In this document: piece by piece, positions 22,301-56,580 of the stretch
How positions within the stretch are numbered: position 1 is the first letter of the stretch
How the letters are laid out: every line of letters starts with the position of its first letter
NCBI GenBank assembly: GCA_947630975.1
Contig: CANRJP010000002.1
Coordinates: 1,096 to 65,095, forward strand
DNA length: 64,000 nucleotides
Direction of reading: 5' to 3'
From: an uncultured Clostridia bacterium
Lineage (GTDB): Bacteria > Bacillota > Clostridia > UMGS1883
Position numbers and translations under genes: made by a program
Notes under the pieces: generated by a model
Database searches by the model: none
Seen by the model: the letters and a program-made list of their open reading frames with translations, nothing else
What the model was told of the DNA's origin: nothing

Positions 22301-22673
22301 CGGCTCAAATGATCTGTACATCCGCCTGAATTGGTCCCCCGGCGCGGCTCAGATGCTCTGCACCGTTTGTCACGAGCTGACCCACAGCAATTCCGCCGTC
22401 AACGGCAATTGGGCCGAGGGAGACGGCTGGAGAAACGCCATGAACGATGATATGATATATGTCAGCCCCTACGGAAAATCCAACGCCACCGAGGATTTTG
22501 CCGAGTTCGGACGTCTGTACTTCATTTCCTACGGAAACCGTGACCGCCAGCGGGCGATACAGCTCCTGTTCCCCAACCGTTATGCCTCGTATTACCGCAT
22601 GAGAAATAACAAAAATATGGGCGGCTTCGAGCTTTGGGAGGATACGGAGTATCCGGAATATAGTAATGAATAA
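19377..22673 (+). CDS. large secreted protein: 4x carboxypeptidase-regulatory-like repeats, ricin-B-like (QxW) segment, C-terminal HExxH putative metallopeptidase domain
   Basis: Signal peptide MKKFCGVILTLCLILSCVTAFGAG. Four 85-aa repeats (SGTVKDSDGTPLENV...DGTYGF...GDYTVT). DYDCNGDGQHW motif. CTVCHELTHS motif. Confidence 0.75.
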   Translation: MKKFCGVILTLCLILSCVTAFGAGLRVEWGGAVLAPGEVSVRLFGADDGLRAILAVYGPDGLAAVKTVEVENARAELELLLGDIGPESRAKLFLWDYEKLEPVRGTLSTLTPEGVIDGAAYSGPALGSVSGTVKNSDGNPLENVDISLSVEGYTTKTASDGTYGFTNVPVGDYTVTAAAPADMEPVGENTLTVTVEEDKTAAADFTFKAIIHYGSVSGTVKDSDGTPLENVEISLSAEGYTTKTASDGTYGFTGVPVGDYTVTAAAPADMEPVGENTLTVTVEEDKTAAADFTFKATVHYGSVSGTVKDSDGTPLENVEVSLSAEGYTTKTASDGTYGFTGVPVGDYTVTAAAPADMEPVGENTLTVTVEEDKTAAADFTFKATVHYGSVSGTVKDSDGIPFENVEISLSAEGYTTKTASDGTYGFDNVPVGEYTVTAAAPADMEPVGEASVNVTVKENQTSTADFVFGPKEPEPEKWYSDNQKVNNGSSIGYHSFEALAGDYEVEFELTVVKKGNNAVMLHDSSKNPLDYEGSSVILLFNGNYFSVRSGDGSGGYTAEAVNLCAVKENETYKIKICGDAAMNTYTVSVTGKDGQTHTSDIMRAWTNGDKLDSLALISNDHNTVVNGDECSDYLFYVTGCTAEHIIGDPVYDGFAGRYFAIKAGGKYVRGNNGKLSADWNSVSDDSAKFLPRDMGDGSFAFMCLSSKRRITASDSGQLSSADYDCNGDGQHWLLEKGPSYSDEAPAYYLKSLKNQKYIGLVDGFLSAVDEADKVELIFEPLNDDSPLYLISASPAYARLSKKQRERIEMIYETVAGDVFDRYSNDIISAEWTPRLRIDNIYKEAKDTDEELYKRLEKFLKGDDAYLITDGAIANSYSVTTPLPGTGGETCGLDGGVAGSYDFWRGTKLQGTKYKLTVYTAAGSVQQTVDLYVQNDGTARTNEQRFVEIFNKIPYIYRKNITSVKIRSDTANSYNCGSNDLYIRLNWSPGAAQMLCTVCHELTHSNSAVNGNWAEGDGWRNAMNDDMIYVSPYGKSNATEDFAEFGRLYFISYGNRDRQRAIQLLFPNRYASYYRMRNNKNMGGFELWEDTEYPEYSNE
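19745..20780 (+). repeat. four near-identical 255-bp in-frame tandem repeats inside the CDS
   Basis: Stretches of >100 bp are identical between units (for example around 20160 and 20400). Confidence 0.85.
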
Positions 22674-22679
22674 AAATGA

Positions 22680-23224
22680 GGGGCCGTAAAAAAATGGCGC
22701 AGAACGTTCAAGGGCATAAAGTCTTTATTTAAGGCAAATTGTAGAACGTTATATAATCGTTCAGTAAAAACAAAATAGTGAATTAATGTAGAAAATTCGC
22801 TCTAACGAGCGAATTTTTTCATTTTATGCCCTTGAACTACGAACGAAAATCACCCTCGGCGGCGTCGGGGCAAAGCCCGTCTATGCGACGACATTTTTTA
22901 CAAAAATGCCGTCGCGCGAGGACTTGCCCCTCCTTCCTCGCAAAAGGTCACGCGGCGCTCCGACTATTCGGGCGGATAAGCCGCCCTCATTACGCCTGCG
23001 CTTGCTACCAACCTTTTGCGAGTTTGATAGCACCACTCCCCACAAACAACAAAGTTGTTTGTGGGGAAAAGGAGGAGCAGCCAAACGAGCCAAACGGTGA
23101 CTTTTTTGCGAAGCATAAAAAGTCGCCGCAAGCGAAGGGAGGCTTGCGACGACGCCGTTCTGCACGATTTTTTCGACCGGCCCCGTGCCTCCATGTTACA
23201 GAGCGAGTTTTTTTTACAACCCCC
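22680..23224. mobile_element. ~530-bp TIR-bounded non-autonomous repeat element, copy 1
   Basis: TIRs GGGGCCGTAAAAAAA / TTTTTTTTACAACCCC. Internal perfect palindrome CCCCACAAACAAC-AAAG-TTGTTTGTGGGG. Nested IR GTTCAAGGGCATAAA / TTTATGCCCTTGAAC. Two more copies elsewhere in the window. Confidence 0.7.
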
Positions 23225-27928: not shown

Positions 27929-28609
27929 ATGTGGTTCAACGACAAGAACGCCCTTGTGGGCAAGCGGTTCCGTACCACGGCGGACACAAAGGAACTGCTG
28001 GAGCTTCACGGCCTTCTGGCGGAGAGCTTTGCTTCGCGGGCGGAGGACAGGGCCGGTAACGCCGAGGAGCACATCCGGAGGGTAAAACAGCTCACCGGAA
28101 TTTTGGTTCGGGCCATGCTTGATAACGATTATCCCGAATTTACGGCGGAATATGCCGACAATATAATACTGGCTTCCCCACTCCACGACATCGGCAAAAT
28201 AACCGTTCGGGACGAAATACTTAAAAAGGGCGACAAGCTCACCTCCGGCGAAAGCGGAGAACTGATGAACCATACTCTTGCTGGCAGCGAGATCCTCCAC
28301 GAGCTGGCGGAGGCGGTGGGCGGCGGCACCTATATAGCCGTCGCGGCGGTAATAGCCCGTTACCACCATGAGCGCTGGAACGGCTGCGGTTATCCCGACC
28401 GGCTACGGGGCGAGGCCATACCCCTTGCCGCCCGTATAATGTCGATAGTCGACAGCTTCGACTGCCTTGCCGCGGGCTGCCCGTACAGCAAAAAGGTGGG
28501 CGTTGACGGAGCGGCGGAGCTGCTGCGAAAATTTGCCGGCGAGTACTACGACCCGGCTCTGACGGATATGTTCCTGACGAAGATGGACGCGATCAGAGAA
28601 TTATATTGA
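27929..28609 (+). CDS. HD-GYP domain phosphodiesterase
   Basis: HDIGK, RYHHERWNGCGYP and GYP-type motifs. A GTG at 27920 is an alternative start. Confidence 0.8.
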   Translation: MWFNDKNALVGKRFRTTADTKELLELHGLLAESFASRAEDRAGNAEEHIRRVKQLTGILVRAMLDNDYPEFTAEYADNIILASPLHDIGKITVRDEILKKGDKLTSGESGELMNHTLAGSEILHELAEAVGGGTYIAVAAVIARYHHERWNGCGYPDRLRGEAIPLAARIMSIVDSFDCLAAGCPYSKKVGVDGAAELLRKFAGEYYDPALTDMFLTKMDAIRELY

Positions 28610-30636: not shown

Positions 30637-31674
30637 TTGAAAATAGAGGAAATTCTTGAAAAACTGGACGCCCCCTTGGGCGTCAGCGGCAGTGAGGAGG
30701 CCGTCGGGAGCGCGGTCAAGGACTTGCTGGCACCCTGCTGCCAGACCGTGACCGAGGACGTTTTAGGCAACGTAACGGGCTGGTACCGCTGCGGTCGGGA
30801 AAACGCTCCCGTAGTGATGATAGAGGCCCATCAGGACGAGCTGGGCCTCATGGTAAGCGGCATAACCGACGAGGGGAGCCTGCTCTTCTGCGAGATAGGC
30901 GGCTTTGACCCCAAGACCCTTCCCGGAACCGAGGTCACCGTCCACTGCGAGACCGGGAACTATTTTGGCGTGATAGGCGCCAAGCCTCCCCATCTGGTGA
31001 AGGATGCGGCCAAGGCCCTTGCCGTTGAAAACATGGCCGTGGACATCGGCTTTAAAAAGGAGCAAACCGAAAAAATCGTTCGGGTGGGGGACATAATCAC
31101 CCTCAACACCGGCTATACAAAGCTGGCGGGCTCCGCCGTCGCCGGACGCTGCATCGATGACCGGGGCGGCCTAGCGGCGGTGATACGCACCATGGAGCTC
31201 ATACAGAAATACCGGCTGTCCTGCGACGTGGCGGCCGTGGCCACGGTTCAGGAGGAGCTGGGCCTTCGCGGGGCGAGGACGGCTGCGGCCCAGCTTGTGC
31301 CCGACGCCGCCATCGCCGTAGATGTCTGCCACGGCACAAGCCCCGGCGTCAGCGACAACGCCTTCCCCTTGGGCAAAGGCCCCGTCGTCAGCGTTGGCCC
31401 CAACCTCCATCCGAAGCTGACCCGCCAGCTCCTCGACCGGGCAAAGGAAGCCGGCATCGAGGTTCAGATAGACGTGGACAGCGGCGACACCGGCACCGAC
31501 GCCTGGGAAATACAGGTGGCCGGGGCGGGAGTCCCCACGGCCCTGCTCTCCATACCTCTGCGCTATATGCACGCCAATTACGAGGTGGGGGACAGCCGCG
31601 ACATTGAAAATACGGCCCGGCTCATGGCGGCCTGGCTTTTGAGCTACAAAGGCGGTGACGATCTGTGCTTCTGA
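30637..31674 (+). CDS. M42 family metallopeptidase (paralog 1)
   Basis: TTG start after AGGAGGG. Conserved HxDExG-type and ...VQEEVGLRGA motifs of the M42/FrvX family. Confidence 0.8.
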   Translation: MKIEEILEKLDAPLGVSGSEEAVGSAVKDLLAPCCQTVTEDVLGNVTGWYRCGRENAPVVMIEAHQDELGLMVSGITDEGSLLFCEIGGFDPKTLPGTEVTVHCETGNYFGVIGAKPPHLVKDAAKALAVENMAVDIGFKKEQTEKIVRVGDIITLNTGYTKLAGSAVAGRCIDDRGGLAAVIRTMELIQKYRLSCDVAAVATVQEELGLRGARTAAAQLVPDAAIAVDVCHGTSPGVSDNAFPLGKGPVVSVGPNLHPKLTRQLLDRAKEAGIEVQIDVDSGDTGTDAWEIQVAGAGVPTALLSIPLRYMHANYEVGDSRDIENTARLMAAWLLSYKGGDDLCF

Positions 31675-32672
31675 AAGAACTGTGCCAACGCTCCGGCCCC
31701 TCCGGTTGGGAGGACGACATAAGGAGCTTTATCCTCGGTCAAATAAAGGCCGACGAGATAACCGTGGACACCATGGGCAACATCATCGCCCATAAGCTCG
31801 GCGGCGGCAAAAAGGTGATGGTGGCCGCCCACATGGACGAGGTGGGCTTCATCGTCAGCGGCTTCACCGACGAGGGCTTTGTGAGGTTCAAAACCGTCGG
31901 CGGCATACTCACCACCGTTCTTGTGAGCAAAAAGGTGTTGCTGGGCGAAAAAAAGGTGCCCGGCATAATCAGCGCCAAGGCCGTACACCTACAAAAGCGT
32001 GAGGAACGGGAAAAGCTCATTCCCATGAGTGAGCTTTATATCGACATCGGCGCGAAGAATAAGGAGGAGGCCCAAAACCTTCTGAATTTGGGCGACTACG
32101 GAGTTTTCGCCGGCGAGTACACGGAGTTCGGCGATGGCCTTGTGAAGAGCAAGGCCCTTGACGACCGGGTGGGCTGCGCCGCCCTCATCGAGCTGATGAA
32201 AAACGACTACGCCAACGATATGTACTTTGTGTTCACCGTTCAGGAGGAGGTCGGCCTTCGCGGCGCTATCATAGCGGCCAACCGCATCAGACCCGACTAC
32301 GCCCTTGTGATCGAGGGCACCACCTGCAGCGACGTTTACGGCACAAAGCCCCACGAAACCGTCACCAATCTTGGCGGCGGAGCGGTCATGACCGCCATGG
32401 ACAGGGCCGCCGTCAGCGACCGGCGCTATTTTGAGATGATAAAAAGTCTGGCGGAAAGGGAAAACATTCCCCTTCAAATCAAGCGCACAAGCAGCGGCGG
32501 CACCGACGCCGGCAGCATCCAGCGCAGCGGCGGCGGAGTAAAGACGGCGGTTCTCGCCGTGCCCTGCCGCTATATCCATTCCCCCGTCAGCGTAATGAGC
32601 AAAAGCGACTTTGACAGCGTCTGCCGCCTCAGCGCGGCGGTACTGAAGGAGCTGGAAAGGAGAGAACTGTAA
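31665..32672 (+). CDS. M42 family metallopeptidase (paralog 2)
   Basis: AAHMDEVGF and FTVQEEVGLRGA motifs. Confidence 0.8.
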   Translation: MLLKELCQRSGPSGWEDDIRSFILGQIKADEITVDTMGNIIAHKLGGGKKVMVAAHMDEVGFIVSGFTDEGFVRFKTVGGILTTVLVSKKVLLGEKKVPGIISAKAVHLQKREEREKLIPMSELYIDIGAKNKEEAQNLLNLGDYGVFAGEYTEFGDGLVKSKALDDRVGCAALIELMKNDYANDMYFVFTVQEEVGLRGAIIAANRIRPDYALVIEGTTCSDVYGTKPHETVTNLGGGAVMTAMDRAAVSDRRYFEMIKSLAERENIPLQIKRTSSGGTDAGSIQRSGGGVKTAVLAVPCRYIHSPVSVMSKSDFDSVCRLSAAVLKELERREL

Positions 32673-33646
32673 TGGAGCTTTTGAAAAAACTCAACGAGTG
32701 TTGGTCTCCCTCGGGCCGTGAGGACAGCATAAGGAACCTCATTGCCGCCGAGCTGGAGCCCTATGTCACCGACGTATACACCGACCCCATGGGCAACCTC
32801 ATCTGCCGCAAAAAGGGCAACGGACGGCGGCTCATGTTCGCCGCCCACATGGACGAGATAGGCTTCATGGTGACGAACATCGACGACAGCGGCTTCCTCC
32901 GTTTCACCAACGTGGGCGGCATCTCGGCCCACAACTGCGTAAATCGCGGCGTTGTCTTTGAAAACGGCACGGCGGGCGTTATTTCATACGAAAAAACCGT
33001 CAAGGATCTCAACCTTGACAAAATGTATATCGACATCGGCGCGGCTGACAGGGCCGAGGCCGAGAGCAAGGTCAGCGTGGGCGATATGGCCTGCTGCAAC
33101 GAGGGCTTCACCCTTATGGGTTCTTGCGCCGCTGCCAAATCCATGGACGACCGCGTGGGCTGCTACGCCCTGATAAAGGCCGTTCAGCGGGCGGCCTCCA
33201 ACAAAAACGACATTTACGCCGTGTTCACCGTTCAGGAGGAGCTGGGCCTTCGTGGAGCCAAAACCGCCTCCTTCAACGTGGAGCCCGACCTTGGCATAGC
33301 CATCGACGTTTCCATGGTGGGCGACACTCCCGAAAGCGCCAGGCGCAGCCTCGCGCTGGGCAAGGGCCCGGGCATAAAGCTGAAGGACGCCTCCTTTATA
33401 ATACACCCGAAGGCCCGTGAGTTCATGCTTCAGGCCGCCCGTGCGGCGGAAATACCCTTCCAGCTTGAGGCGGCGGCCTACGGCGGCACCGACGCGGGAG
33501 CCATACACCTCAACGGCGGCGGAGTTCCGGCGGGAACGGTTTCGATACCCACCCGCTACATCCATTCGCCCCGAGAGGTGGTCAATCTCGCCGACGTGGA
33601 AAATACCGTCAAACTTGTGACAAAAATGATAGAAGTTGGTATATGA
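32672..33646 (+). CDS. M42 family metallopeptidase (paralog 3)
   Basis: AAHMDEIGF and FTVQEELGLRGA motifs. Confidence 0.8.
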   Translation: MELLKKLNECWSPSGREDSIRNLIAAELEPYVTDVYTDPMGNLICRKKGNGRRLMFAAHMDEIGFMVTNIDDSGFLRFTNVGGISAHNCVNRGVVFENGTAGVISYEKTVKDLNLDKMYIDIGAADRAEAESKVSVGDMACCNEGFTLMGSCAAAKSMDDRVGCYALIKAVQRAASNKNDIYAVFTVQEELGLRGAKTASFNVEPDLGIAIDVSMVGDTPESARRSLALGKGPGIKLKDASFIIHPKAREFMLQAARAAEIPFQLEAAAYGGTDAGAIHLNGGGVPAGTVSIPTRYIHSPREVVNLADVENTVKLVTKMIEVGI

Positions 33647-33647
33647 T

Positions 33648-34529
33648 ATGAAAGACAACATAACAAGCGCCATAACCCATGATGGGAGTATTCGCGTCAT
33701 AGCGGCGGACACCACCGGGCTTTGCAATCGTGCCCAGGAGCTACACCGCATGAGTCCGGTCTGCTGTGCGGCCTTGGGCCGAGCCCTGACCGGCGCGGCG
33801 ATTTTGGGGCGGATGCTCAAGGGCTATGACGACAGCGTCACCCTTCAGTTCAACGGCGGCGGCCCTATTGGCAGGGTCGTGGCGGTCTCCGACGGCCGCA
33901 GCAACGTCAAGGGCTATGTGGACAACCCTCTCGTCGATCTGCCCCTGCGCCCCGACGGCAAGCTGGACGTGGGCGGAGCGGTGGGCCGCTTCGGTATGCT
34001 CAGCGTAATAAAGGATTTGAACATGAAGGAGCCGTATGTGGGCCAGACTCCCCTTGTCAGCGGTGAGATAGCCGAGGACTTGACACGATACTTCGCCGAC
34101 AGCGAACAGCTCCCCACGGCTGTGGCCCTCGGCGTCCTTGTGGACAGGGATTACAGCGTCAAGGCCGCCGGCGGCTTTGTGATACAGCTCCTGCCCGGCG
34201 CGGCCGATGAGGACATCGACCGTGTGGAAAAGGTGATCTCCGAGATACCCGCCGTGACGCAGATGCTCAGCTCCGGCGAGACCCCGAGGGATATTGTGGA
34301 GCGCCTCCTTGCGGGATATGAGATCGACTATTTTGAAGATATGGAAACAAAATACCTCTGCGATTGCAGCCGTGAGCGCATGGAGCGGGCCCTGATAAGC
34401 GTGGGGGAGAAGGAGCTGCGCAAGCTGATCGAGGAGGACGGAAAAGCCGAGCTCTGCTGTCACTTCTGCAACAATAAGTACGAGTTTGACCGCCCACAGC
34501 TTGAGGCTCTGCTTGAACAGGCTAAATAA
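33648..34529 (+). CDS. hslO: Hsp33 redox-regulated chaperone
   Basis: C-terminal zinc centre CDCS...CCHFCNNKY (CxC...CxxC). Overall Hsp33 length. First ATG at 33648. Confidence 0.85.
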   Translation: MKDNITSAITHDGSIRVIAADTTGLCNRAQELHRMSPVCCAALGRALTGAAILGRMLKGYDDSVTLQFNGGGPIGRVVAVSDGRSNVKGYVDNPLVDLPLRPDGKLDVGGAVGRFGMLSVIKDLNMKEPYVGQTPLVSGEIAEDLTRYFADSEQLPTAVALGVLVDRDYSVKAAGGFVIQLLPGAADEDIDRVEKVISEIPAVTQMLSSGETPRDIVERLLAGYEIDYFEDMETKYLCDCSRERMERALISVGEKELRKLIEEDGKAELCCHFCNNKYEFDRPQLEALLEQAK

Positions 34530-37965: not shown

Positions 37966-38045
37966 TATATGCCCGAAAATTTTTTATATTAAATAAAAAT
38001 GCTTCGCCAACCGTTTGTTCAAACAAACGCTATTCACAAAAATAT

Positions 38046-38552
38046 GGGGCTGTAAAAAAATCGTGCAGAACGGCGTCGTCGCAAGCCTTCCTTCGCTTGC
38101 GGCGACTTTTTATGCTTCGCAAAAAAGTCACCGTTTGGCTCGTTCGGCTGCTCCTCCTTTTCCCCACAAACAACAAAGTTGTTTGTGGGGAGTGGTGCTG
38201 TCAAACTCGCAAAAGGTTTGTAGCAAGCGCAGGCGTAATGAGGGCGGCTTATCCGCCCGAATAGCCGGAGCGCCGCGTGACCTTTTGCGAAGAAGGAGGG
38301 GCAAGCTCTCGTGCGACGGCATTTTTGTAAAAAAATGTGGTCGCATAGACGGGCTTTGCCCCGACGCCGCCGAGCGGTGATTTTCGTTCGTAGTTCAGGG
38401 CATAATTTAAAAAGAAAAACCGTCTTTTCGCAAGAAAAAGGCGGTTTTTCCACATCAATTCACAGCTTTGTTTCTTTTTCCGGATTTATCAACACATAAA
38501 TTTACCTTAAGGCTTTTAGCCCTTGAACAATCTGCGCCATTTTTTCAGCCCC
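38046..38552. mobile_element. ~530-bp TIR-bounded repeat element, copy 2 (inverted; ~45-bp internal deletion)
   Basis: Reverse-complement match to 22680-23224. TIR GGGGCTGTAAAAAAA. Lacks the CTGACTACATAATCTGGAGGCACGGGGGCCGGTCGAAA segment present in copies 1 and 3. Confidence 0.7.
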
Positions 38553-38554
38553 TA

Positions 38555-40612
38555 TTACTGTTCCAAAAACTTCTCCCGGAGGGCCTTGCGTTCTTCGTCG
38601 GTCAAACCGAGCCGCTCCCTTAAGAAATTGTCCATCGAGCCGTATTTTTTCTTTACGCTGTCAAAAGCCACACTGAGGTATTTTTCGTCCACTCCTTTTG
38701 TCGCGGCTAAAAGCTCGACGGTTTCATCGCCGTCAAGGCCGTTCGCCTCGGCGACCGTTCGCATCTCGGCTATGTCGGACGCGTAAGCCTCGTTGGAAAT
38801 CAGGTAGTCGCGCATAACCATATCTTCGTCCGCTCCCAGGGCGATCAGCAGCAGAGCCGACGCAATGCCCGCCCTGTCCTTCCCTTGGGCGCTGTGAAAG
38901 ATTATTGGCTCTCCTTCTTCCGCCGCAAGCAAGACGTCAAAAAATAGGGAGTACTCCGCCTGAACGTGATCGACCAAAAGCAGCCTTTCGTATCTTTCGG
39001 TGATTATGCCGTTCCGCGCGTAGGCTATCGACCTCTTTAAATTGTCCCCGTCCTCGGGTTCGATTTCGCCGAGCTTTATTTCGGTCTCATCGCTGAACAT
39101 TTTTCCCCCGTAGACCGGTATGGAAATATATTGCGCTCCGTTTATTCCGACGTCGGGATTTTCCGCTTTTTCCGCCTCTGTACGGAAATCAACGATGTAT
39201 TTTATACCGTATTGTTCGGCGAGGGTGTTCGCGTCCTTTGGCGACAGCCATGACAGCATACCGCTGCGGAAAAGTACATTTTCCTTTATTCTCCGTCCGT
39301 CTATGCAAGGATAGCCCCCAAGCTGGCGGGCGTTGTTGGCGGACATGATGTTTATTGCCTGGGTTTTCGCCGTATAATTTTCGGGGCGGGCGGCGGAATT
39401 TTGTATCGTTACCTCTTGAATATCGTTGTTCCAGCCCACATTTAAATTAAAGCTCTCCGCCACAAATCTTATTGGCAGCATGGTCTTTTCCCCGATTATG
39501 ACCGGAGCGGTATCAAGGACGTGCGGCTCCCCGTTAAGATAGGCCGTGGGATCGTCGATTTGCAGCACTACGGTGTTGCCGCCCCGGTTCAGCGTCACGG
39601 TTTGAGTCTCGCCGTCCCAGAGCACCTCGCCGCCGAGCTCCTCCACAACGGCCCGGACGGGGAGAAAGGTTCTGCCGTTTACAATGACGGGCGTTGTCCC
39701 GTCTGAGTCGATGGGCTTATCCTCTCCGTTCACCGTCATAATGGGATCGTTTATACGCAGCTTGATGTTCAGCGCCTTTTCGGCCTTTGCCTCGGAGGAA
39801 TAAGGATTTGACGCCCAAACGCGGACATAATCGACTTCAGTCCTGGCGGGCAGGGCGTTGATACCCGTGTCGGTTCCGCCGCCCGCCCAGGCGGACGACT
39901 CCATTGTCAGCAGCATTTTGCCGCCAAGGGGACATATGCCGCCGCCTTGAGAGCGCCAGGTCTCTTTGCCGTCCACATAAAAAATATAGTCTGTTTCGGT
40001 TCGCCAAAGACCGAAGGTATGAAATTCGCCGTCATAAATATCGAGATTGGAATGGGTGCGGCTATCCTTTTTTATGTCGTTCCCGTAGCCGTCCCAATGA
40101 AGCGCGTGGTTGCAGCACCCATCCTCACTGTTGATGCTTTCTATAATGTCTATCTCAATACCGTCGCTGCTGGTGCCGTCCACATTGAGAACGTCGCCCG
40201 CCATTATCCAGAAAGCTCCCCAAGTGCCCGGCGCCACAGGAAAGCGCACCGAGGCTTCATAGTATCCGTATCCGAAGGAAGCGCTGTCGTTTGTACAAAC
40301 GGCGCCCGAGTGGACGCGGTTTTCAGCCTCGTTCCACTCCGCGTCCAAAACCAGTTGACCGTTCCCGTTAAGATAGGAGAGGGAGTTGTCCCATATATCC
40401 ATGCCCTCACAGCGTATCATTTCCGGACAGCGCATCCATTTGTCCGGATCAAGCTCGCTTCCGTCGAAATTATCCTCAAAAATAAGGGGCGGAGCCGAAA
40501 TCTGAGCCTCCGGCAGCTCCTCCGCGGCACAGCTCCCGCTCACGGCTCCGAAAACAGTTGTTATAACCGCGACTAAACAAAATGCTTTTTTGCCAAAACA
40601 ATGTACCATCAA
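38555..40612 (-). CDS. secreted GH16 glycoside hydrolase fused to two copper-amine-oxidase-N-like domains and a C-terminal PTP-like (Y_phosphatase3) domain
   Basis: Signal peptide. GH16 catalytic motif EIDIIE. CuAO-N-like repeats (VNGRTFLPVRAVVEELGGEV / GEKTMLPIRFVAESFNLNV). PTP-like loop HSAQGKDRAG and DYLISN. Confidence 0.75.
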   Translation of the reverse strand: MMVHCFGKKAFCLVAVITTVFGAVSGSCAAEELPEAQISAPPLIFEDNFDGSELDPDKWMRCPEMIRCEGMDIWDNSLSYLNGNGQLVLDAEWNEAENRVHSGAVCTNDSASFGYGYYEASVRFPVAPGTWGAFWIMAGDVLNVDGTSSDGIEIDIIESINSEDGCCNHALHWDGYGNDIKKDSRTHSNLDIYDGEFHTFGLWRTETDYIFYVDGKETWRSQGGGICPLGGKMLLTMESSAWAGGGTDTGINALPARTEVDYVRVWASNPYSSEAKAEKALNIKLRINDPIMTVNGEDKPIDSDGTTPVIVNGRTFLPVRAVVEELGGEVLWDGETQTVTLNRGGNTVVLQIDDPTAYLNGEPHVLDTAPVIIGEKTMLPIRFVAESFNLNVGWNNDIQEVTIQNSAARPENYTAKTQAINIMSANNARQLGGYPCIDGRRIKENVLFRSGMLSWLSPKDANTLAEQYGIKYIVDFRTEAEKAENPDVGINGAQYISIPVYGGKMFSDETEIKLGEIEPEDGDNLKRSIAYARNGIITERYERLLLVDHVQAEYSLFFDVLLAAEEGEPIIFHSAQGKDRAGIASALLLIALGADEDMVMRDYLISNEAYASDIAEMRTVAEANGLDGDETVELLAATKGVDEKYLSVAFDSVKKKYGSMDNFLRERLGLTDEERKALREKFLEQ

Positions 40613-40779
40613 AATACCTCCATATGCGGCCCGTGGGCCGTACTCAATATGTATTATAGCACAAAAAATAAGGTTTGTCTATCTCGAAAATGAAAAATTT
40701 ATGATTTCATATCTGTACAGAAAAGATGGCCTTGAGAAGCATCATGAAATCCGACCGCTACAAAAAATTTTATCCGCCC

Positions 40780-40808: not shown

Positions 40809-40844
40809 ATATGTGTATTATATGTGTATTATATGTGAAACTGA

Positions 40845-41060
40845 ATAGGCTGCGGGTGCCGGGCGTTCGCCAAGGCGAAAAGGGCCCGGTGAAAAGGGAA
40901 ACAGGTGAAAGTCCTGTACGAACTCGTCACTGTAATTACGGAGCCGGGAAGGAATATGTCACTGACCCTTCGGGGTTGGGAAGGCCCTTCCAAGCGATGA
41001 TGTATAAGCCAGGAGACCTGCCCGCCGCCGGTACGCGGAGCTTCGGCTCCAATGCCACGA
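40845..41060 (+). ncRNA. cobalamin (AdoCbl) riboswitch
   Basis: GGTGCCGGG...AAGGGAA.CAGGTGAAA.TCC...GTCACTG core and B12-box AAGCCAGGAGACCTGCC at 41007-41023. Sits 5' of a B12 transport/biosynthesis operon. Confidence 0.75.
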
Positions 41061-41084
41061 GTAATTGGCAGTACGGTTAAACGG

Positions 41085-41142
41085 ACACTTGTGTGCGTCT
41101 GTTTTTGGTGCGCCTTGCTTTGCGGCAACGGCGCATTTTTTG
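41085..41142 (+). terminator. riboswitch expression-platform terminator (GCGCC...GGCGC + T6; preceded by second T-run)
   Basis: Stem followed by TTTTTT just before ATG 41158. Confidence 0.4.
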
Positions 41143-41157
41143 TTTGGAAGTGACGGC

Positions 41158-41577
41158 ATGAACGAAATAAAAGACGGAACATATACCGTCGACGTAGATC
41201 TTAGCGGCGGCAGCGGACGGGCAAAGATCGAAAGCCCGACGGAGCTTACTGTAAAGGACGGAGAAATCAAAGCCAAAATTTGTTGGGACAGCCCCAGCTA
41301 TGATTATATGGAAATCGGGGGCAGGGAGTATTATCCGGTCAATAAAGAGGGCAATTCGGTGTTTGTCATTGACGCGGAGCTGGACAGGGAGCTTTCGGTC
41401 AAGGCCGAGACCGTTGCCATGAGCAGGCCCCATATGATAGATTACACCTTGTATTTCGACTCGGCTTCACTGCGCGGGAGCGGCGGCGCGGCGTATGCCG
41501 TATGCGGCGCCGCGCTTGCGGCGATCGCCGCTGCCGCAGTTATAGTTTTAAGGATAAGGAAAAGGCATGAAAAATAA
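41158..41577 (+). CDS. hypothetical C-terminally TM-anchored protein (paralog A), first gene after B12 riboswitch
   Basis: ATG after the terminator. The 5' extension in the ORF track overlaps the riboswitch. Single C-terminal TM helix plus basic tail RIRKRHEK. Paralogous to 45380-45922. Confidence 0.55.
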   Translation: MNEIKDGTYTVDVDLSGGSGRAKIESPTELTVKDGEIKAKICWDSPSYDYMEIGGREYYPVNKEGNSVFVIDAELDRELSVKAETVAMSRPHMIDYTLYFDSASLRGSGGAAYAVCGAALAAIAAAAVIVLRIRKRHEK

Positions 41578-42715
41578 GCTCGTCATAATTTTTTTGATAA
41601 TTTTAATAATTTTGTCAGGCTGCGGAAAAGAGCCGATGGCTCCGGCTTTGCCGGACAAGGCGGAGGAATTGCCCGGCCTGACCTTCGCCGAACGGGAGGA
41701 ACTCCTCTACGCCGACCAATTCGCCATCGACCGCTATGAGGACGGGTACTCCCTGATACATATCGCGGACGGAGAAAAATATCTTGTGGCGCCGGAGAAC
41801 GGAAAAATCCCCGACGGCCTCGCCCCGGAGATAAAAGTTGTCAGGCGGCCTGTAAGCAACGTTTACATGGCGGCCACGGCGGCGATGGATCTGTTCGACG
41901 CTCTTAACAGAGTGGACGCGGTGCGCTTTTCTTCGGTCAAGGCCGACGGCTGGTACATAGACGGGGCGAGAGAGGCGATGGAGCGGGGAGAAATGCTGTA
42001 TGCCGGAAAATACAGTCTGCCGGATTACGAGCTGCTTCTCTCGGCGGGGTGCGGCCTTTCCGTACAGTCCACCATGATATATCACGCGCCGGAGGTAAGG
42101 GAAAAATTGGAGGAGCTGGGTATAACCGTGTTTGTCGACCGCTCCAGCTACGAAAGCCACCCTCTCGGCCGCTGTGAGTGGGTGAAGCTTTACGGAGAAC
42201 TGTTGGGGGAGAGCGCCTTGGCCGAAAAGCTGTTTGACGAACAAAAGTCGTATCTTGAAAGCCTCGGCCCCGCCGACGGCGGAAAGACAGCCGTCTGCTT
42301 TTACATTAGCGGCGGCGGACGGATAGTGACCCGCAGGGCCGGGGATTACGTTTCGAAAATGATTGAGCTGGCCGGAGGCAGAAATATCCTTTCCGAGCCA
42401 GGTGGGGACGGCGCTCTTTCCACCGTGACCATGGAGCCGGAGGAGTTTTATTCAAAGGCGAAGGAAGCGGACGTGATTATTTATGACGGAGCGATTACCG
42501 GCGAGATCGGCAGCGTTGACGAGCTCATATCAAAAAATTCCCTGCTGGCGGACTTCAAAGCGGTAAAAAACGGCGATGTCTGGTGTACCGGCAAGAGCTT
42601 TTTTCAGGGGACGATGAGCGTCGGCGAGACAATATCCGAACTCAATATGATTTTTACCGGCGGCTCCGGGGAGTTGTCCCATTTTTCTAAATTAAAAGGC
42701 GGCGATGCCCCTTGA
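41567..42715 (+). CDS. btuF: ABC transporter substrate-binding lipoprotein (BtuF-like, cobalamin/siderophore family)
   Basis: Lipobox ILSGC. Class III SBP architecture. Position in the riboswitch-controlled operon. Confidence 0.75.
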   Translation: MKNKLVIIFLIILIILSGCGKEPMAPALPDKAEELPGLTFAEREELLYADQFAIDRYEDGYSLIHIADGEKYLVAPENGKIPDGLAPEIKVVRRPVSNVYMAATAAMDLFDALNRVDAVRFSSVKADGWYIDGAREAMERGEMLYAGKYSLPDYELLLSAGCGLSVQSTMIYHAPEVREKLEELGITVFVDRSSYESHPLGRCEWVKLYGELLGESALAEKLFDEQKSYLESLGPADGGKTAVCFYISGGGRIVTRRAGDYVSKMIELAGGRNILSEPGGDGALSTVTMEPEEFYSKAKEADVIIYDGAITGEIGSVDELISKNSLLADFKAVKNGDVWCTGKSFFQGTMSVGETISELNMIFTGGSGELSHFSKLKGGDAP

Positions 42716-43713
42716 GACGTTTAAAATTCAAGACAGCGGCTGTATTCGCCGGGCTGGCCGCTCTGTCTCTGGTTCTTTTGGGGGCCAATCTCTTTATCGG
42801 CAGCGTCAGGCTTTCCGCCGTCGAGACGGTCGGCGGCCTTTTCTCCGGCGACGCGATAATATGGAAGATAAGGCTCCCAAGAGCTGTTGCGGCCATTCTT
42901 TTGGGCGGAGCGCTGGCCCTGTCGGGATACCTGTTGCAGACCTTTTTCAACAATCCGATCGCCGGCCCCTTTGTGCTTGGAGTCAGCTCGGGCGCCAAGC
43001 TGGCCGTGGCTCTGACAATGATAGCCGCCGCCGGAGCCGGACGGGCGTTGAACTCCTTTTCCACGGTGGCCGCAGCCTTTGCCGGATCCATGCTCTCGCT
43101 GGGATTTATTCTGCTTGTTTCGCGAAAGGTGGGACGGGTGAGCCTGCTTGTGGTCTGCGGCGTTATGATAGGCTACATCTGCTCGGCGGCGACGGATTTC
43201 GCGGTGACATTCGCCGGAGACGCGGACATAGTCAATCTGCGGGACTGGGCCATGGGCAGCTTTTCCGGCACGGATATGGACAGTGTGGCGGTCATGGCGG
43301 CGATAGTTCCGGCGGCGTCGGTTTGCGCGTTTTTGCTCTCCAAGCCGATAGGCGCTTACCGCTTGGGCGAGGGCTATGCGAGAAGCTCGGGCGTGAGGGT
43401 GGGGCTGCTCAGAGCGGCGCTCATAATCCTGTCGGGACTGCTGGCGGCCTGCGTCACCGCGTTTGCCGGGCCGGTGTCCTTTGTGGGCATAGCCGCGCCC
43501 CATATCGTGAGGCTGCTGTTGGGCACATCGAAGCCCACGGTGCTGATACCCGCCTGCTTTTTGGGAGGAGGGATATTCTGTTCGGCCTGCGACCTTGTGG
43601 CCCGCACGGCTTTTGCTCCCACCGAGCTCGGCATCAGTACGGTGACGGCGATTTTCGGTGCGCCGGTGGTAATTGGGATAATGCTTCGGCGGAAGAGGGG
43701 TGAAGCCGTGTGA
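42712..43713 (+). CDS. btuC: FecCD-family ABC permease (BtuC-like)
   Basis: ~9-10 TM segments and FecCD family signatures. Confidence 0.8.
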   Translation: MRRLKFKTAAVFAGLAALSLVLLGANLFIGSVRLSAVETVGGLFSGDAIIWKIRLPRAVAAILLGGALALSGYLLQTFFNNPIAGPFVLGVSSGAKLAVALTMIAAAGAGRALNSFSTVAAAFAGSMLSLGFILLVSRKVGRVSLLVVCGVMIGYICSAATDFAVTFAGDADIVNLRDWAMGSFSGTDMDSVAVMAAIVPAASVCAFLLSKPIGAYRLGEGYARSSGVRVGLLRAALIILSGLLAACVTAFAGPVSFVGIAAPHIVRLLLGTSKPTVLIPACFLGGGIFCSACDLVARTAFAPTELGISTVTAIFGAPVVIGIMLRRKRGEAV

Positions 43714-44477
43714 ACGATGTCCTCGTTTCGGTTGAAAACCTTTCGGCGGGCTACGGTAAGCCCGTGGCGGAAGATGTGGATTTTGCCGTCAGGGGCGGAG
43801 AAGTGCTCGTCCTCATCGGCCCGAACGGAGGAGGAAAGTCCACCCTATTGAGGACGCTTGCCGGCGAGCTTAAAAAGCTTGGCGGCAAAGTGCTCCTTTG
43901 CGGAATCGACACGGACAGGCTTTCCCCAAAAGAAAGGGCGAAAAGGCTTTCCGTCCTGCTGACCGCCCGGCCCCGCACCGACAGAATGACCTGCCGGGAG
44001 GTGGTCGAGACGGGCCGTTATCCCTACACCGGCCGTTTCGGCGTACTTTCCCGAGACGATAAAAACGCGGTGAAAAGGGCGCTGGAGCTGGCGGGAGTGT
44101 CCGAGCTGTCGGATTGTGACTTCTCGCGGATAAGCGACGGCCAGCGTCAGCGGGTGATGCTGGCGCGGGCCGTATGTCAGGAGCCGGAGGTCATGATACT
44201 CGACGAGCCCACGTCTTATCTCGACATCCACCACAAGCTGATATTTCTCGACAGCCTTCAAACGCTGGCGAAAGAAAAGTCCGTCGCCGTTATTTTGTCG
44301 ATGCACGAGCTTGACCTTGCGGAAAAAATCGCCGACCGGGCCGTATGTATAAAGGATGGCCATGTTTTTCGGTCGGGAACGCCGGACGAAATTTTTAAGG
44401 AGGAGGTCCTTCGGGAGCTTTTTGACCTCCCGGATGAACTTTATAAAAAATATTTTGTGAAAGGAAAATCATTATGA
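43710..44477 (+). CDS. btuD: ABC transporter ATP-binding protein (BtuD/FepC-like)
   Basis: Walker A GPNGGGKST, signature SDGQRQRVMLARAV, Walker B ILDEPTS. Confidence 0.85.
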   Translation: MNDVLVSVENLSAGYGKPVAEDVDFAVRGGEVLVLIGPNGGGKSTLLRTLAGELKKLGGKVLLCGIDTDRLSPKERAKRLSVLLTARPRTDRMTCREVVETGRYPYTGRFGVLSRDDKNAVKRALELAGVSELSDCDFSRISDGQRQRVMLARAVCQEPEVMILDEPTSYLDIHHKLIFLDSLQTLAKEKSVAVILSMHELDLAEKIADRAVCIKDGHVFRSGTPDEIFKEEVLRELFDLPDELYKKYFVKGKSL

Positions 44478-56047: not shown

Positions 56048-56563
56048 AAAAACTGACTACATAATCTGGAGGCACGGGGGCCGGTCGAAAAAATCGTGCA
56101 GAACGGCGTCGTCACAAGCTCGGTATCGCTTGTTTCGATTTGAAAAATCGAAACGTGGCTCACCTCGCTGCTCCTCCTTTTCCCCACAAACAACTTTGTT
56201 GTTTGTGGGGAGTGGTGCTGTCAAACTCGCAAAAGGTTGATAGCAAGCGCAGGCGTAATGAGGGCGGCTTACCCGCCCGAATAGCCGGAGCGCCGCGTGA
56301 CCTTTTGCGAAGAAGGAGGGGCAAGCCCTCGTGCGACGGCATTTTTGCAAAAAAGTGTCGGAGCATAGACGGGCTTTGCCCCGACGCCACCGAGGGTGAT
56401 TTTCGTTCGTAGTTCAAGGGCATAAAAATGAGAAAATTCGTTATGGCGAATTTTCTACATTATGCAATTATTTTGTTTTTATTGACTGGTTATATAACAC
56501 TCAAATTTGCCTTAAATTAAGTCATTTAGCCCTTGAACGATCTGCGCCATTTTTTTACGGCCC
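56038..56563. mobile_element. ~530-bp TIR-bounded repeat element, copy 3 (inserted inside the cob operon)
   Basis: TIRs GGGGCTGTAAAAAAA / TTTTTTTACGGCCC. Same internal palindromes as copies 1 and 2. Confidence 0.7.
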
Positions 56564-56580
56564 ATCAAGGAGTGAAAATT

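Follow-up and report, generated by a model that had tools for sequence, protein, structure and literature searches.

A predicted exported GH16 protein carries a maintained phosphatase-like domain without its catalytic cysteine

What is left for a phosphatase fold to do once its nucleophile has gone, when it is attached to a glycoside hydrolase? This question is raised by a gene on the minus strand of a 64-kb stretch of DNA from an uncultured Clostridia bacterium (64,000 nucleotides, hereafter the window). Its product joins a glycoside hydrolase family 16 (GH16) domain, a Cu_amine_oxidN1 domain and a C-terminal Y_phosphatase3 domain of the ALP type, which belongs to the protein tyrosine phosphatase (PTP) fold and has a Ser at the position of the catalytic Cys (Table 1). 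A database search of 5.8 billion proteins returned five protein clusters with this same architecture. The analysis presented below indicates that the nucleophile has been lost selectively from a domain that is otherwise constrained, and we lean towards the reading that the phosphatase half of an extracellular glycanase/glycan-phosphatase module is now non-catalytic and probably binds a phosphorylated ligand.

The Y_phosphatase3 profile matches the C-terminal domain over positions 2-240 of its 240 (E = 5.3e-58; score 197 bits, cut-off 22.2), and an AlphaFold2 model of the domain, built from a 60-sequence alignment, has a pLDDT of 95.2 and a pTM of 0.93. In this model the P-loop lies between a strand (166-169) and a helix (176-188), in a PTP-like arrangement. 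The best solved structures found with Foldseek were 8dhi and 8dhj (1.5e-16; target-normalised TM-score of 0.84 for 8dhi), followed by matches to MptpB (1ywf, 2oz5) at about 1e-12, and the neighbours include, according to their structure titles, Cys-to-Ser forms with ligand such as TpbA C132S with phosphotyrosine, and also a C150S entry. In a HMMER alignment the P-loop of the window protein falls column for column on HCTAGKDRTG of 8dhi, a Clostridioides difficile PTP. The signature of the ALP family is HCXXGKDR[TA]G, where the Asp is the acid/base and the Lys takes part in substrate binding (PMC6409689). The window P-loop, HSAQGKDRAG, fails at the catalytic Cys and keeps the rest of this signature (H573, G577, K578, D579, R580, A581 and G582). 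The missing nucleophile predicts that phosphatase activity is absent, and, as judged from its sequence, the domain fits the pseudophosphatase class, i.e. a phosphatase fold devoid of an essential catalytic residue.

At the other end of the protein, the Glyco_hydro_16 profile (PF00722) matches residues 101-246 (E = 2.3e-12), and around 40 GH16 chains of the PDB match the domain with E values from 6e-14 to 8e-3. The best of these are laminarinase-type enzymes, but at only about 1e-13, and all NCBIfam equivalog scores are far under their cut-offs. The ExDxxE motif is present, and invariant in 5/5 proteins of the same architecture; the GH16 domain appears to be an active endo-glycanase. Between the two, Cu_amine_oxidN1 covers residues 302-403 (E = 1.4e-33, profile positions 8-108 of 108) and is made of two half-repeats of about 55 residues each that share 37% identity (E = 2e-13). 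It is 53-60% identical to domains found in many other fusion proteins (P0042-P0117), whose partners are flavodoxin, FMN-reductase, FGE-sulfatase and carboxymuconolactone-decarboxylase; given such varied fusions, it therefore acts as a mobile module among exported redox proteins of gut Firmicutes. These results bear out what the first-pass annotation had read from the DNA alone: the GH16 / CuAO-N / Y_phosphatase3 architecture agrees with Pfam, the EIDIIE motif is intact and invariant in the five fused proteins, and the alignments with 8dhi and with the homologues agree on the HSAQGKDRAG loop with a Ser (AGC) at the Cys position. Of the two CuAO-N domains that it had proposed, the domain itself is there, but as a single Pfam domain composed of two half-repeats.

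The N-terminus has two Lys and a hydrophobic core of 15 residues (AFCLVAVITTVFGAV), followed by SGSCAA/EE, from which we infer that the protein is exported. The reading frame likely starts at an ATG rather than at the preceding TTG, and a promoter is predicted about 40 nt before the start codon on a consensus match alone.

The Ser is found again in a separate ENA assembly (L001), whose coding sequence is identical to that of the window, AGC included. The two sequences present 7 differences over 4.8 kb, all within a 45-bp stretch (38175-38219) of the adjoining repeat, so that L001, in essence the same strain, counts as a weak replicate. A sister protein, P0002 (full-length form P0383, 689 residues), is 70% identical to the window protein, occurs on five contigs and has the P-loop HGEYGKDRTG, with a Gly encoded by GGC at the nucleophile site. 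In the Cys-bearing fusions the corresponding codon is TGT (P0003 and P0004) or TGC (P0005); the first base is the sole difference between TGY, AGC and GGC. A compensating Cys was looked for and ruled out: C436 is the sole Cys of the domain and is also present in Cys-bearing homologues, such as P0003 (YVCADG) and P0129 (YPCKDG).

In order to gauge how well the domain is maintained, we can consider the 40 alignment columns where 90% or more of about 113 homologues agree. The window protein keeps 36 of them, deviating by L571I, W572F, C574S and L605I, while P0002 deviates by A428V, L571I, W572F and C574G. P0003, P0004 and P0005 share L605I, which P0002 lacks; what is specific to the Cys-less pair among these columns is the nucleophile and the two residues L571I and W572F adjacent to it. 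Residues N427, R429, D475, R477, E481, D487, Y541, G577-K-D-R580, G582 and D602 are kept in both proteins. Between the window protein and P0002, the phosphatase domain has a nonsynonymous distance (dN) of 0.193, against 0.206 for GH16 and 0.205 for the middle domain, and the ratio of dN to the synonymous distance (dS), ω, is about 0.09 in both the phosphatase domain and GH16, a value that is only approximate because dS is around 2 and saturated. Distances from Cys-less to Cys-bearing orthologues do not exceed those among the Cys-bearing orthologues, i.e. there is no acceleration. Conserved columns and dN/dS therefore indicate that the nucleophile was lost selectively, with the domain constrained over about 30% amino-acid divergence, and they rule out a decaying domain. 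When the phosphatase domains are placed in a neighbour-joining tree, the window protein and P0383 form a clade in 200/200 bootstraps. This clade is nested in a group with P0121, the split homologue, and the Cys-bearing fusions (146/200), and all outgroups have Cys.

Such a loss is rare in the family. Cys occupies the nucleophile column in 117 of the 118 close homologues that show a P-loop, in 143/144 P-loops among the best 150 representatives at 50% identity, and overall in about 99% of more than 260 relatives; the other non-Cys members found are P0209/P0385 (Ser) and P0263 (Gly), without further exceptions. The other questions left by the first-pass annotation can be answered on this basis. 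Its pseudo-phosphatase (STYX-like) suggestion agrees with a nucleophile that is gone from an otherwise conserved pocket and with the STYX-type Gly of the sister, and the single nucleotide said to separate the codon from Cys is indeed the first position of TGY. The two objections that it had raised against itself fall: the aligned column is a Ser, and a sequencing error is ruled out by the AGC of L001 and the Gly of the sister on its five contigs. As for orthologues sharing the Ser, the sister is also Cys-less, with Gly, but the three more distant fusions keep their Cys.

Other variants were seen in the family. P0385/P0209 (394 residues, WHSTAGKDRAG) has an acidic low-complexity insert and represents a second natural change from Cys to Ser, independent of that in the window protein. 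Its gene adjoins that of a 373-residue Y_phosphatase3 paralogue; P0263 (HGTKGKDRTG) is an additional Gly case. P0004 retains the Cys and has Asn for the pre-nucleophile His (NCSAGKDRTG), which is invariant in all other homologues examined, and the near-invariant D487 is Asn in P0004 and P0005. Tandem Y_phosphatase3 pairs occur in P0243 (1220 residues), P0246, P0248 and P0252, where both P-loops have an intact HC, in contrast to the active-plus-dead arrangement of receptor PTPs. The NARQLGG subfamily, with Gln for the Asp of NxRDLGG, makes up 111 of 125 tallied relatives, the five fusions included.

The genomic context of the Cys-bearing relatives points to surface polysaccharides. Each of the genes of P0003, P0004 and P0005 closes a surface-polysaccharide cluster at its 3' end, in the same orientation and immediately behind a gene for LicD, Acyl_transf_3 or YdjC. 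GT1, GT2, Wzy_C, an HD protein, a flippase of about 503 residues, LicD, Acyl_transf_3 and YdjC are encoded in these clusters. The closest stand-alone phosphatase, P0121 (53% identity, Cys intact, signal peptide), is encoded at two loci (L008 and L009) in the order GT2, flippase, LicD, Y_phosphatase3, GH16, the last two being separate genes, and the stand-alone GH16 of L008 is the best match to the GH16 of the window protein (67.7% identity). This split pair, set against the fusion in a Rosetta-stone comparison, therefore argues for a functional coupling of the two domains and for a link of both to a polysaccharide pathway of the LicD type, which adds phosphate. P0007, the nearest relative with GH16 only, is encoded near LicD, GT4 and EpsG. 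The phospho-sugar-binding module that the first-pass annotation had named as an alternative receives indirect support from the LicD neighbours of the Cys-bearing relatives and from the split phosphatase and GH16 pair; such a binding function, like its beta-glucanase label, stays putative.

The two Cys-less genes stand elsewhere. A search of the 64-kb window with cluster-gene queries found no homologue of LicD, Wzy, GT2, the 503-residue flippase, the acyltransferase or YdjC, the sole match being a weak HD hit; the 511-residue Polysacc_synt/MatE protein encoded downstream is not the cluster flippase. The context of the gene was inspected over about 25 kb on each side: its neighbours are a B12-type ABC importer with a cobalamin riboswitch in one direction, and a repeat element, the Polysacc_synt/MatE gene and an amidase gene in the other. 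The gene of P0383 (locus L092) lies between an ion-channel gene and that of a 1061-residue Laminin_G_3 protein; when the cluster genes served as tblastn queries against that locus, no homologue of LicD, GT2, Wzy or the flippase came up.

The reading that we prefer, and hold to be rather probable, brings these observations together as follows. The exported protein would be a GH16 endo-glycanase joined through Cu_amine_oxidN1, a spacer or surface domain, to an ALP-type phosphatase fold. In its ancestor, a secreted Cys-phosphatase and a GH16 enzyme would have cooperated at the end of a Wzy/flippase/LicD cluster, as adjacent genes or as a fusion, presumably trimming a surface polymer that bears phosphate substituents and removing its phosphate. 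On the way to the window protein and its sister, the fused gene would have left the polysaccharide cluster and the first base of the Cys codon would have changed (TGY to AGC or GGC). Purifying selection would then have preserved the Cys-less domain as a module without catalysis, which most likely still binds a phosphorylated ligand and thereby targets or regulates the attached glycanase. Because the sister carries Gly, a function shared by the Ser and Gly proteins needs no nucleophile, and because the entire anion-binding loop is kept as well, a module for phospho-ligand binding and targeting is the most economical reading. By analogy, the domain would most economically be seen as a natural equivalent of the Cys-to-Ser substrate-trap PTPs made in the laboratory to hold a ligand, such as TpbA C132S with phosphotyrosine. 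What the analysis shows is the architecture, the genuine loss of the nucleophile, the retention of the remaining domain by selection, and the gene contexts; secretion, the activity and substrate of GH16, and the binding of a ligand together with its identity are what we infer.

Several observations weigh against this reading. The conserved P-loop residues could be kept for structure alone, and the Glu at P-loop position 575 of P0383 could hinder anion binding. L001 rules out a random assembly error and is not an independent lineage, and ω is approximate, as said above. The LicD/GH16 linkage is seen in only four distinct Cys-bearing relatives, all from gut metagenome-assembled genomes. As a general trait of the family it is rejected, since among 80 loci of the stand-alone family in species-representative genomes LicD/GH16 was found within 10 kb only at the P0003 locus (79/80 without it); the wider family being without this linkage, the glycan connection is a trait of the small clade nearest to the window protein. 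A LicD cluster may also be present elsewhere in the genome, beyond the inspected flanks. Finally, STAS and APH kinase-like fusion genes repeatedly adjoin genes of secreted NARQLGG phosphatases of about 45% identity, and one such relative adjoins a 5TM-LYT-SpoIIE-HATPase_c_2 gene. This hints at a link of these relatives to partner-switching signalling, unrelated to the LicD context, and because such neighbours are found at several relatives a glycan is not established as the substrate of the family. A scan of JGI metagenomes for close relatives of the PTP domain of the window protein found none.

How do the alternatives fare? The domain might be only a structural, stabilising or spacing scaffold, or a protein-protein surface without phosphate binding, catalysis having become dispensable once the gene had left the cluster. 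This is unlikely, even if both Cys-less genes do lie outside LicD clusters, the Glu in the P-loop of P0383 (HGEYGKDR) is unusual, and purifying selection is silent on which property is selected: GKDR-G, N427, R429, D475, R477 and D602 are kept in both proteins at about 70% identity, and a pure scaffold would not be expected to retain near-invariant pocket residues. A different doubt concerns the fusion as a whole, which could be a foraging or antagonistic enzyme acting on foreign phosphorylated glycans (such as phosphomannan or beta-glucan of yeasts, or teichoic acids of foreign bacteria), with its dead phosphatase domain as the targeting module. Each Cys-less gene stands by itself, with a promoter of its own, that of P0383 adjoins the gene of a large Laminin_G_3 surface protein, and laminarinase-type enzymes are the best PDB matches of GH16; however, no sugar transporter or utilisation genes adjoin, and the nearest relatives are genes of biosynthesis clusters, which makes this account quite improbable.

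The chances are smaller still for a domain that remains an enzyme, with Ser574 as alternative nucleophile or with a different reaction catalysed. D579, the acid/base residue (PMC6409689), as well as R580 and K578, are intact. Nevertheless, the equally constrained sister has a Gly, with which no nucleophile is possible. Cys-to-Ser mutants of PTPs serve, moreover, as inactive ligand-binding forms, as in the C132S and C150S structures. We give hardly any credence to the idea that the Ser comes from an error of sequencing or assembly, or that it marks a very recent inactivation in a nascent pseudogene: the metagenome contigs do have low coverage (about 3x for L001) and the second assembly is the same strain, but the codon is the same in both assemblies, the Cys loss is common to the 70%-identical sister on five contigs, as are L571I and W572F, and the open reading frame is intact, with ω at about 0.09 across about 30% amino-acid divergence. 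A phospho-ligand-binding module thus remains the reading that we prefer. A bolder version of it, tentative and rather doubtful, is that GH16 and a secreted ALP-type phosphatase form an unrecognised processing module for LicD-dependent, phosphate-substituted surface polysaccharides of gut Clostridia, and that in the window lineage the phosphatase became a carbohydrate-binding module of a new kind, a natural phospho-glycan-binding substrate trap that steers the glycanase; if true, this would be a bacterial extracellular counterpart of both the eukaryotic pseudophosphatases and the glucan-phosphatase/amylase partnerships.

Table 1. Coordinates of the features discussed in the text (positions in the window, unless another locus is named).
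Feature	Position	Strand	Basis or remark
Open reading frame, 685 codons from TTG	38555..40612	minus	ORF list
Coding sequence of the three-domain protein, 684 aa from ATG	38555..40609	minus	product 100% identical to P0001
Stop codon of the GH16/phosphatase-like gene	38555-38557	minus	
TTG start used by the first-pass annotation	40610-40612	minus	one codon upstream of ATG
Likely ATG start	40607-40609	minus	7 nt after GGAGG
Ribosome-binding site GGAGG	40617..40621	minus	read from the sequence upstream of ATG
Sigma-70-like promoter TAGACA-17-TATAAT, upstream TG	40653..40681	minus	11/12 consensus positions
Putative signal peptide, residues ~2-31 (685-aa numbering)	40520..40609	minus	sequence features; N-termini of orthologues comparable
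GH16 catalytic domain, residues ~42-270	39803..40489	minus	Pfam PF00722; PDB GH16 chains; GH16 of L008
GH16 motif E153-I-D155-I-I-E158 (ExDxxE)	40139..40156	minus	aligns with EIDIME of 8va4
Cu_amine_oxidN1 domain, two half-repeats, residues ~285-403	39404..39760	minus	Pfam PF07833
Y_phosphatase3 / ALP-type PTP-fold domain, residues 421-684	38561..39352	minus	Pfam PF13350, AlphaFold2, Foldseek
P-loop H573-S-A-Q-G-K-D-R-A-G582	38867..38896	minus	sequence and model
AGC codon, Ser574 at the catalytic Cys position	38891..38893	minus	sequence; codons of relatives compared
Cobalamin riboswitch	40837-41039	plus	122 bits, E 3.9e-31; divergent, upstream of the gene
170-aa open reading frame	41065-41577	plus	no Pfam family; after the cobalamin riboswitch
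Peripla_BP_2 binding protein	41567-42715	plus	
FecCD permease	42712-43713	plus	
ABC ATPase	43710-44477	plus	
Intergenic repeat of ~500 bp, three copies	38040-38560; 22660-23190; 56070-56570		second copy on the opposite strand
Three tandem paralogous M42 glutamyl-aminopeptidases (345, 335, 324 aa)	30637-33646	plus	
Hsp33 gene	33636-34529		
Weak HD match	28016-28567		cluster-gene search
Gene of P0004	L004 4707-6785		
Paralogous Y_phosphatase3 gene and P0385/P0209 gene	L095 6558-7679 and 8001-9185		adjoining
Stand-alone NARQLGG phosphatase loci with STAS-APH or SpoIIE/HATPase_c_2 neighbours	L013 4413-5618; L014 10825-12003; L015 11126-12109; L018 11208-14039		

Other features of the window are of interest in their own right. 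The riboswitch and the four genes that follow it look like a B12-regulated uptake operon, of which the first gene is uncharacterised. The intergenic repeat, for which no Rfam family was matched, has copies with 80-86% identity overall and a near-identical core of about 300 bp, and holds a 31-bp palindrome, CCCCACAAACAAC-NNN-GTTGTTTGTGGGG; about 20 bp separate the end of one copy from the stop codon of the GH16/phosphatase-like gene. Further away, the Hsp33 gene follows the trio of M42 aminopeptidases.

To our knowledge, pseudophosphatases, which are well known in eukaryotic signalling, are hardly on record from bacteria, and not as parts of carbohydrate-active enzymes. In the literature on 8DHI, PF13350, Y_phosphatase3, and LicD with glycoside hydrolase and phosphatase, we did not find this architecture described. 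The proteins considered here offer a built-in comparison, with Cys-bearing fusions, a split-gene version beside LicD, and Ser and Gly sisters outside the cluster, i.e. a natural experiment on whether a dead PTP fold serves as a phosphate-recognising glycan-binding module. If it does, this would be a new type of module for phosphorylated polysaccharides, such as teichoic-acid-like polymers or phosphorylated exopolysaccharides, and would give a first function to some of the secreted NARQLGG Y_phosphatase3 lipoproteins that are widespread in gut bacteria; if it does not, the locus would still be a tidy case of lineage-specific loss of catalysis.

Among known systems, the ALP family (MptpB, Listeria LipA, the C. 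difficile PTP and Pho16B from a soil metagenome) shares fold and Pfam family with the domain of the window protein, which keeps the H, GKDR and [TA]G of the signature; MptpB, LipA and Pho16B are exported, as the window protein is predicted to be. In contrast to them, the window protein has Ser for Cys, belongs to the NARQLGG subfamily, is fused to GH16 and Cu_amine_oxidN1, and gives no sign of a role against host cells. ExoK of Sinorhizobium and EglC are likewise GH16 enzymes with the ExDxxE motif, and recall the position of the relatives' genes at the end of a polysaccharide cluster. However, the window GH16 matches the corresponding NCBIfam models weakly (EglC 1.1e-09, ExoK 0.017), with scores far below the cut-offs, and is not an orthologue; the window copy lies outside a cluster, and none of the ExoK/EglC-type enzymes has a phosphatase-like domain.

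The closest precedents for the substitution itself are eukaryotic. STYX (Cys to Gly) and MK-STYX (Cys to Ser) are intracellular DUSP-type signalling proteins that act by binding and not by catalysis. As in the window protein (Ser) and its sister (Gly), the nucleophile alone is replaced and the phosphate loop is kept, whereas the window domain is bacterial, predicted to be extracellular, of the ALP type and carried on a glycoside hydrolase, and its homology with STYX and MK-STYX is limited to the PTP superfamily. By analogy, the protein also resembles the partnerships of glucan phosphatases with amylases in plants. Laforin, SEX4 and LSF2 are glucan phosphatases, and LSF1 is a non-catalytic relative that works with beta-amylases; laforin (4r30) is also a weak Foldseek neighbour of the window domain. 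These proteins differ in belonging to the DSP subfamily, in their fusion to CBM20 or CBM48 and not to a hydrolase, in acting on eukaryotic starch or glycogen and in having no GKDR P-loop. Nevertheless, they too are Cys-phosphatase folds that operate at phosphorylated polysaccharides in cooperation with glycoside hydrolases, and would provide the closest functional analogy to a glycanase with a phosphatase-like module.

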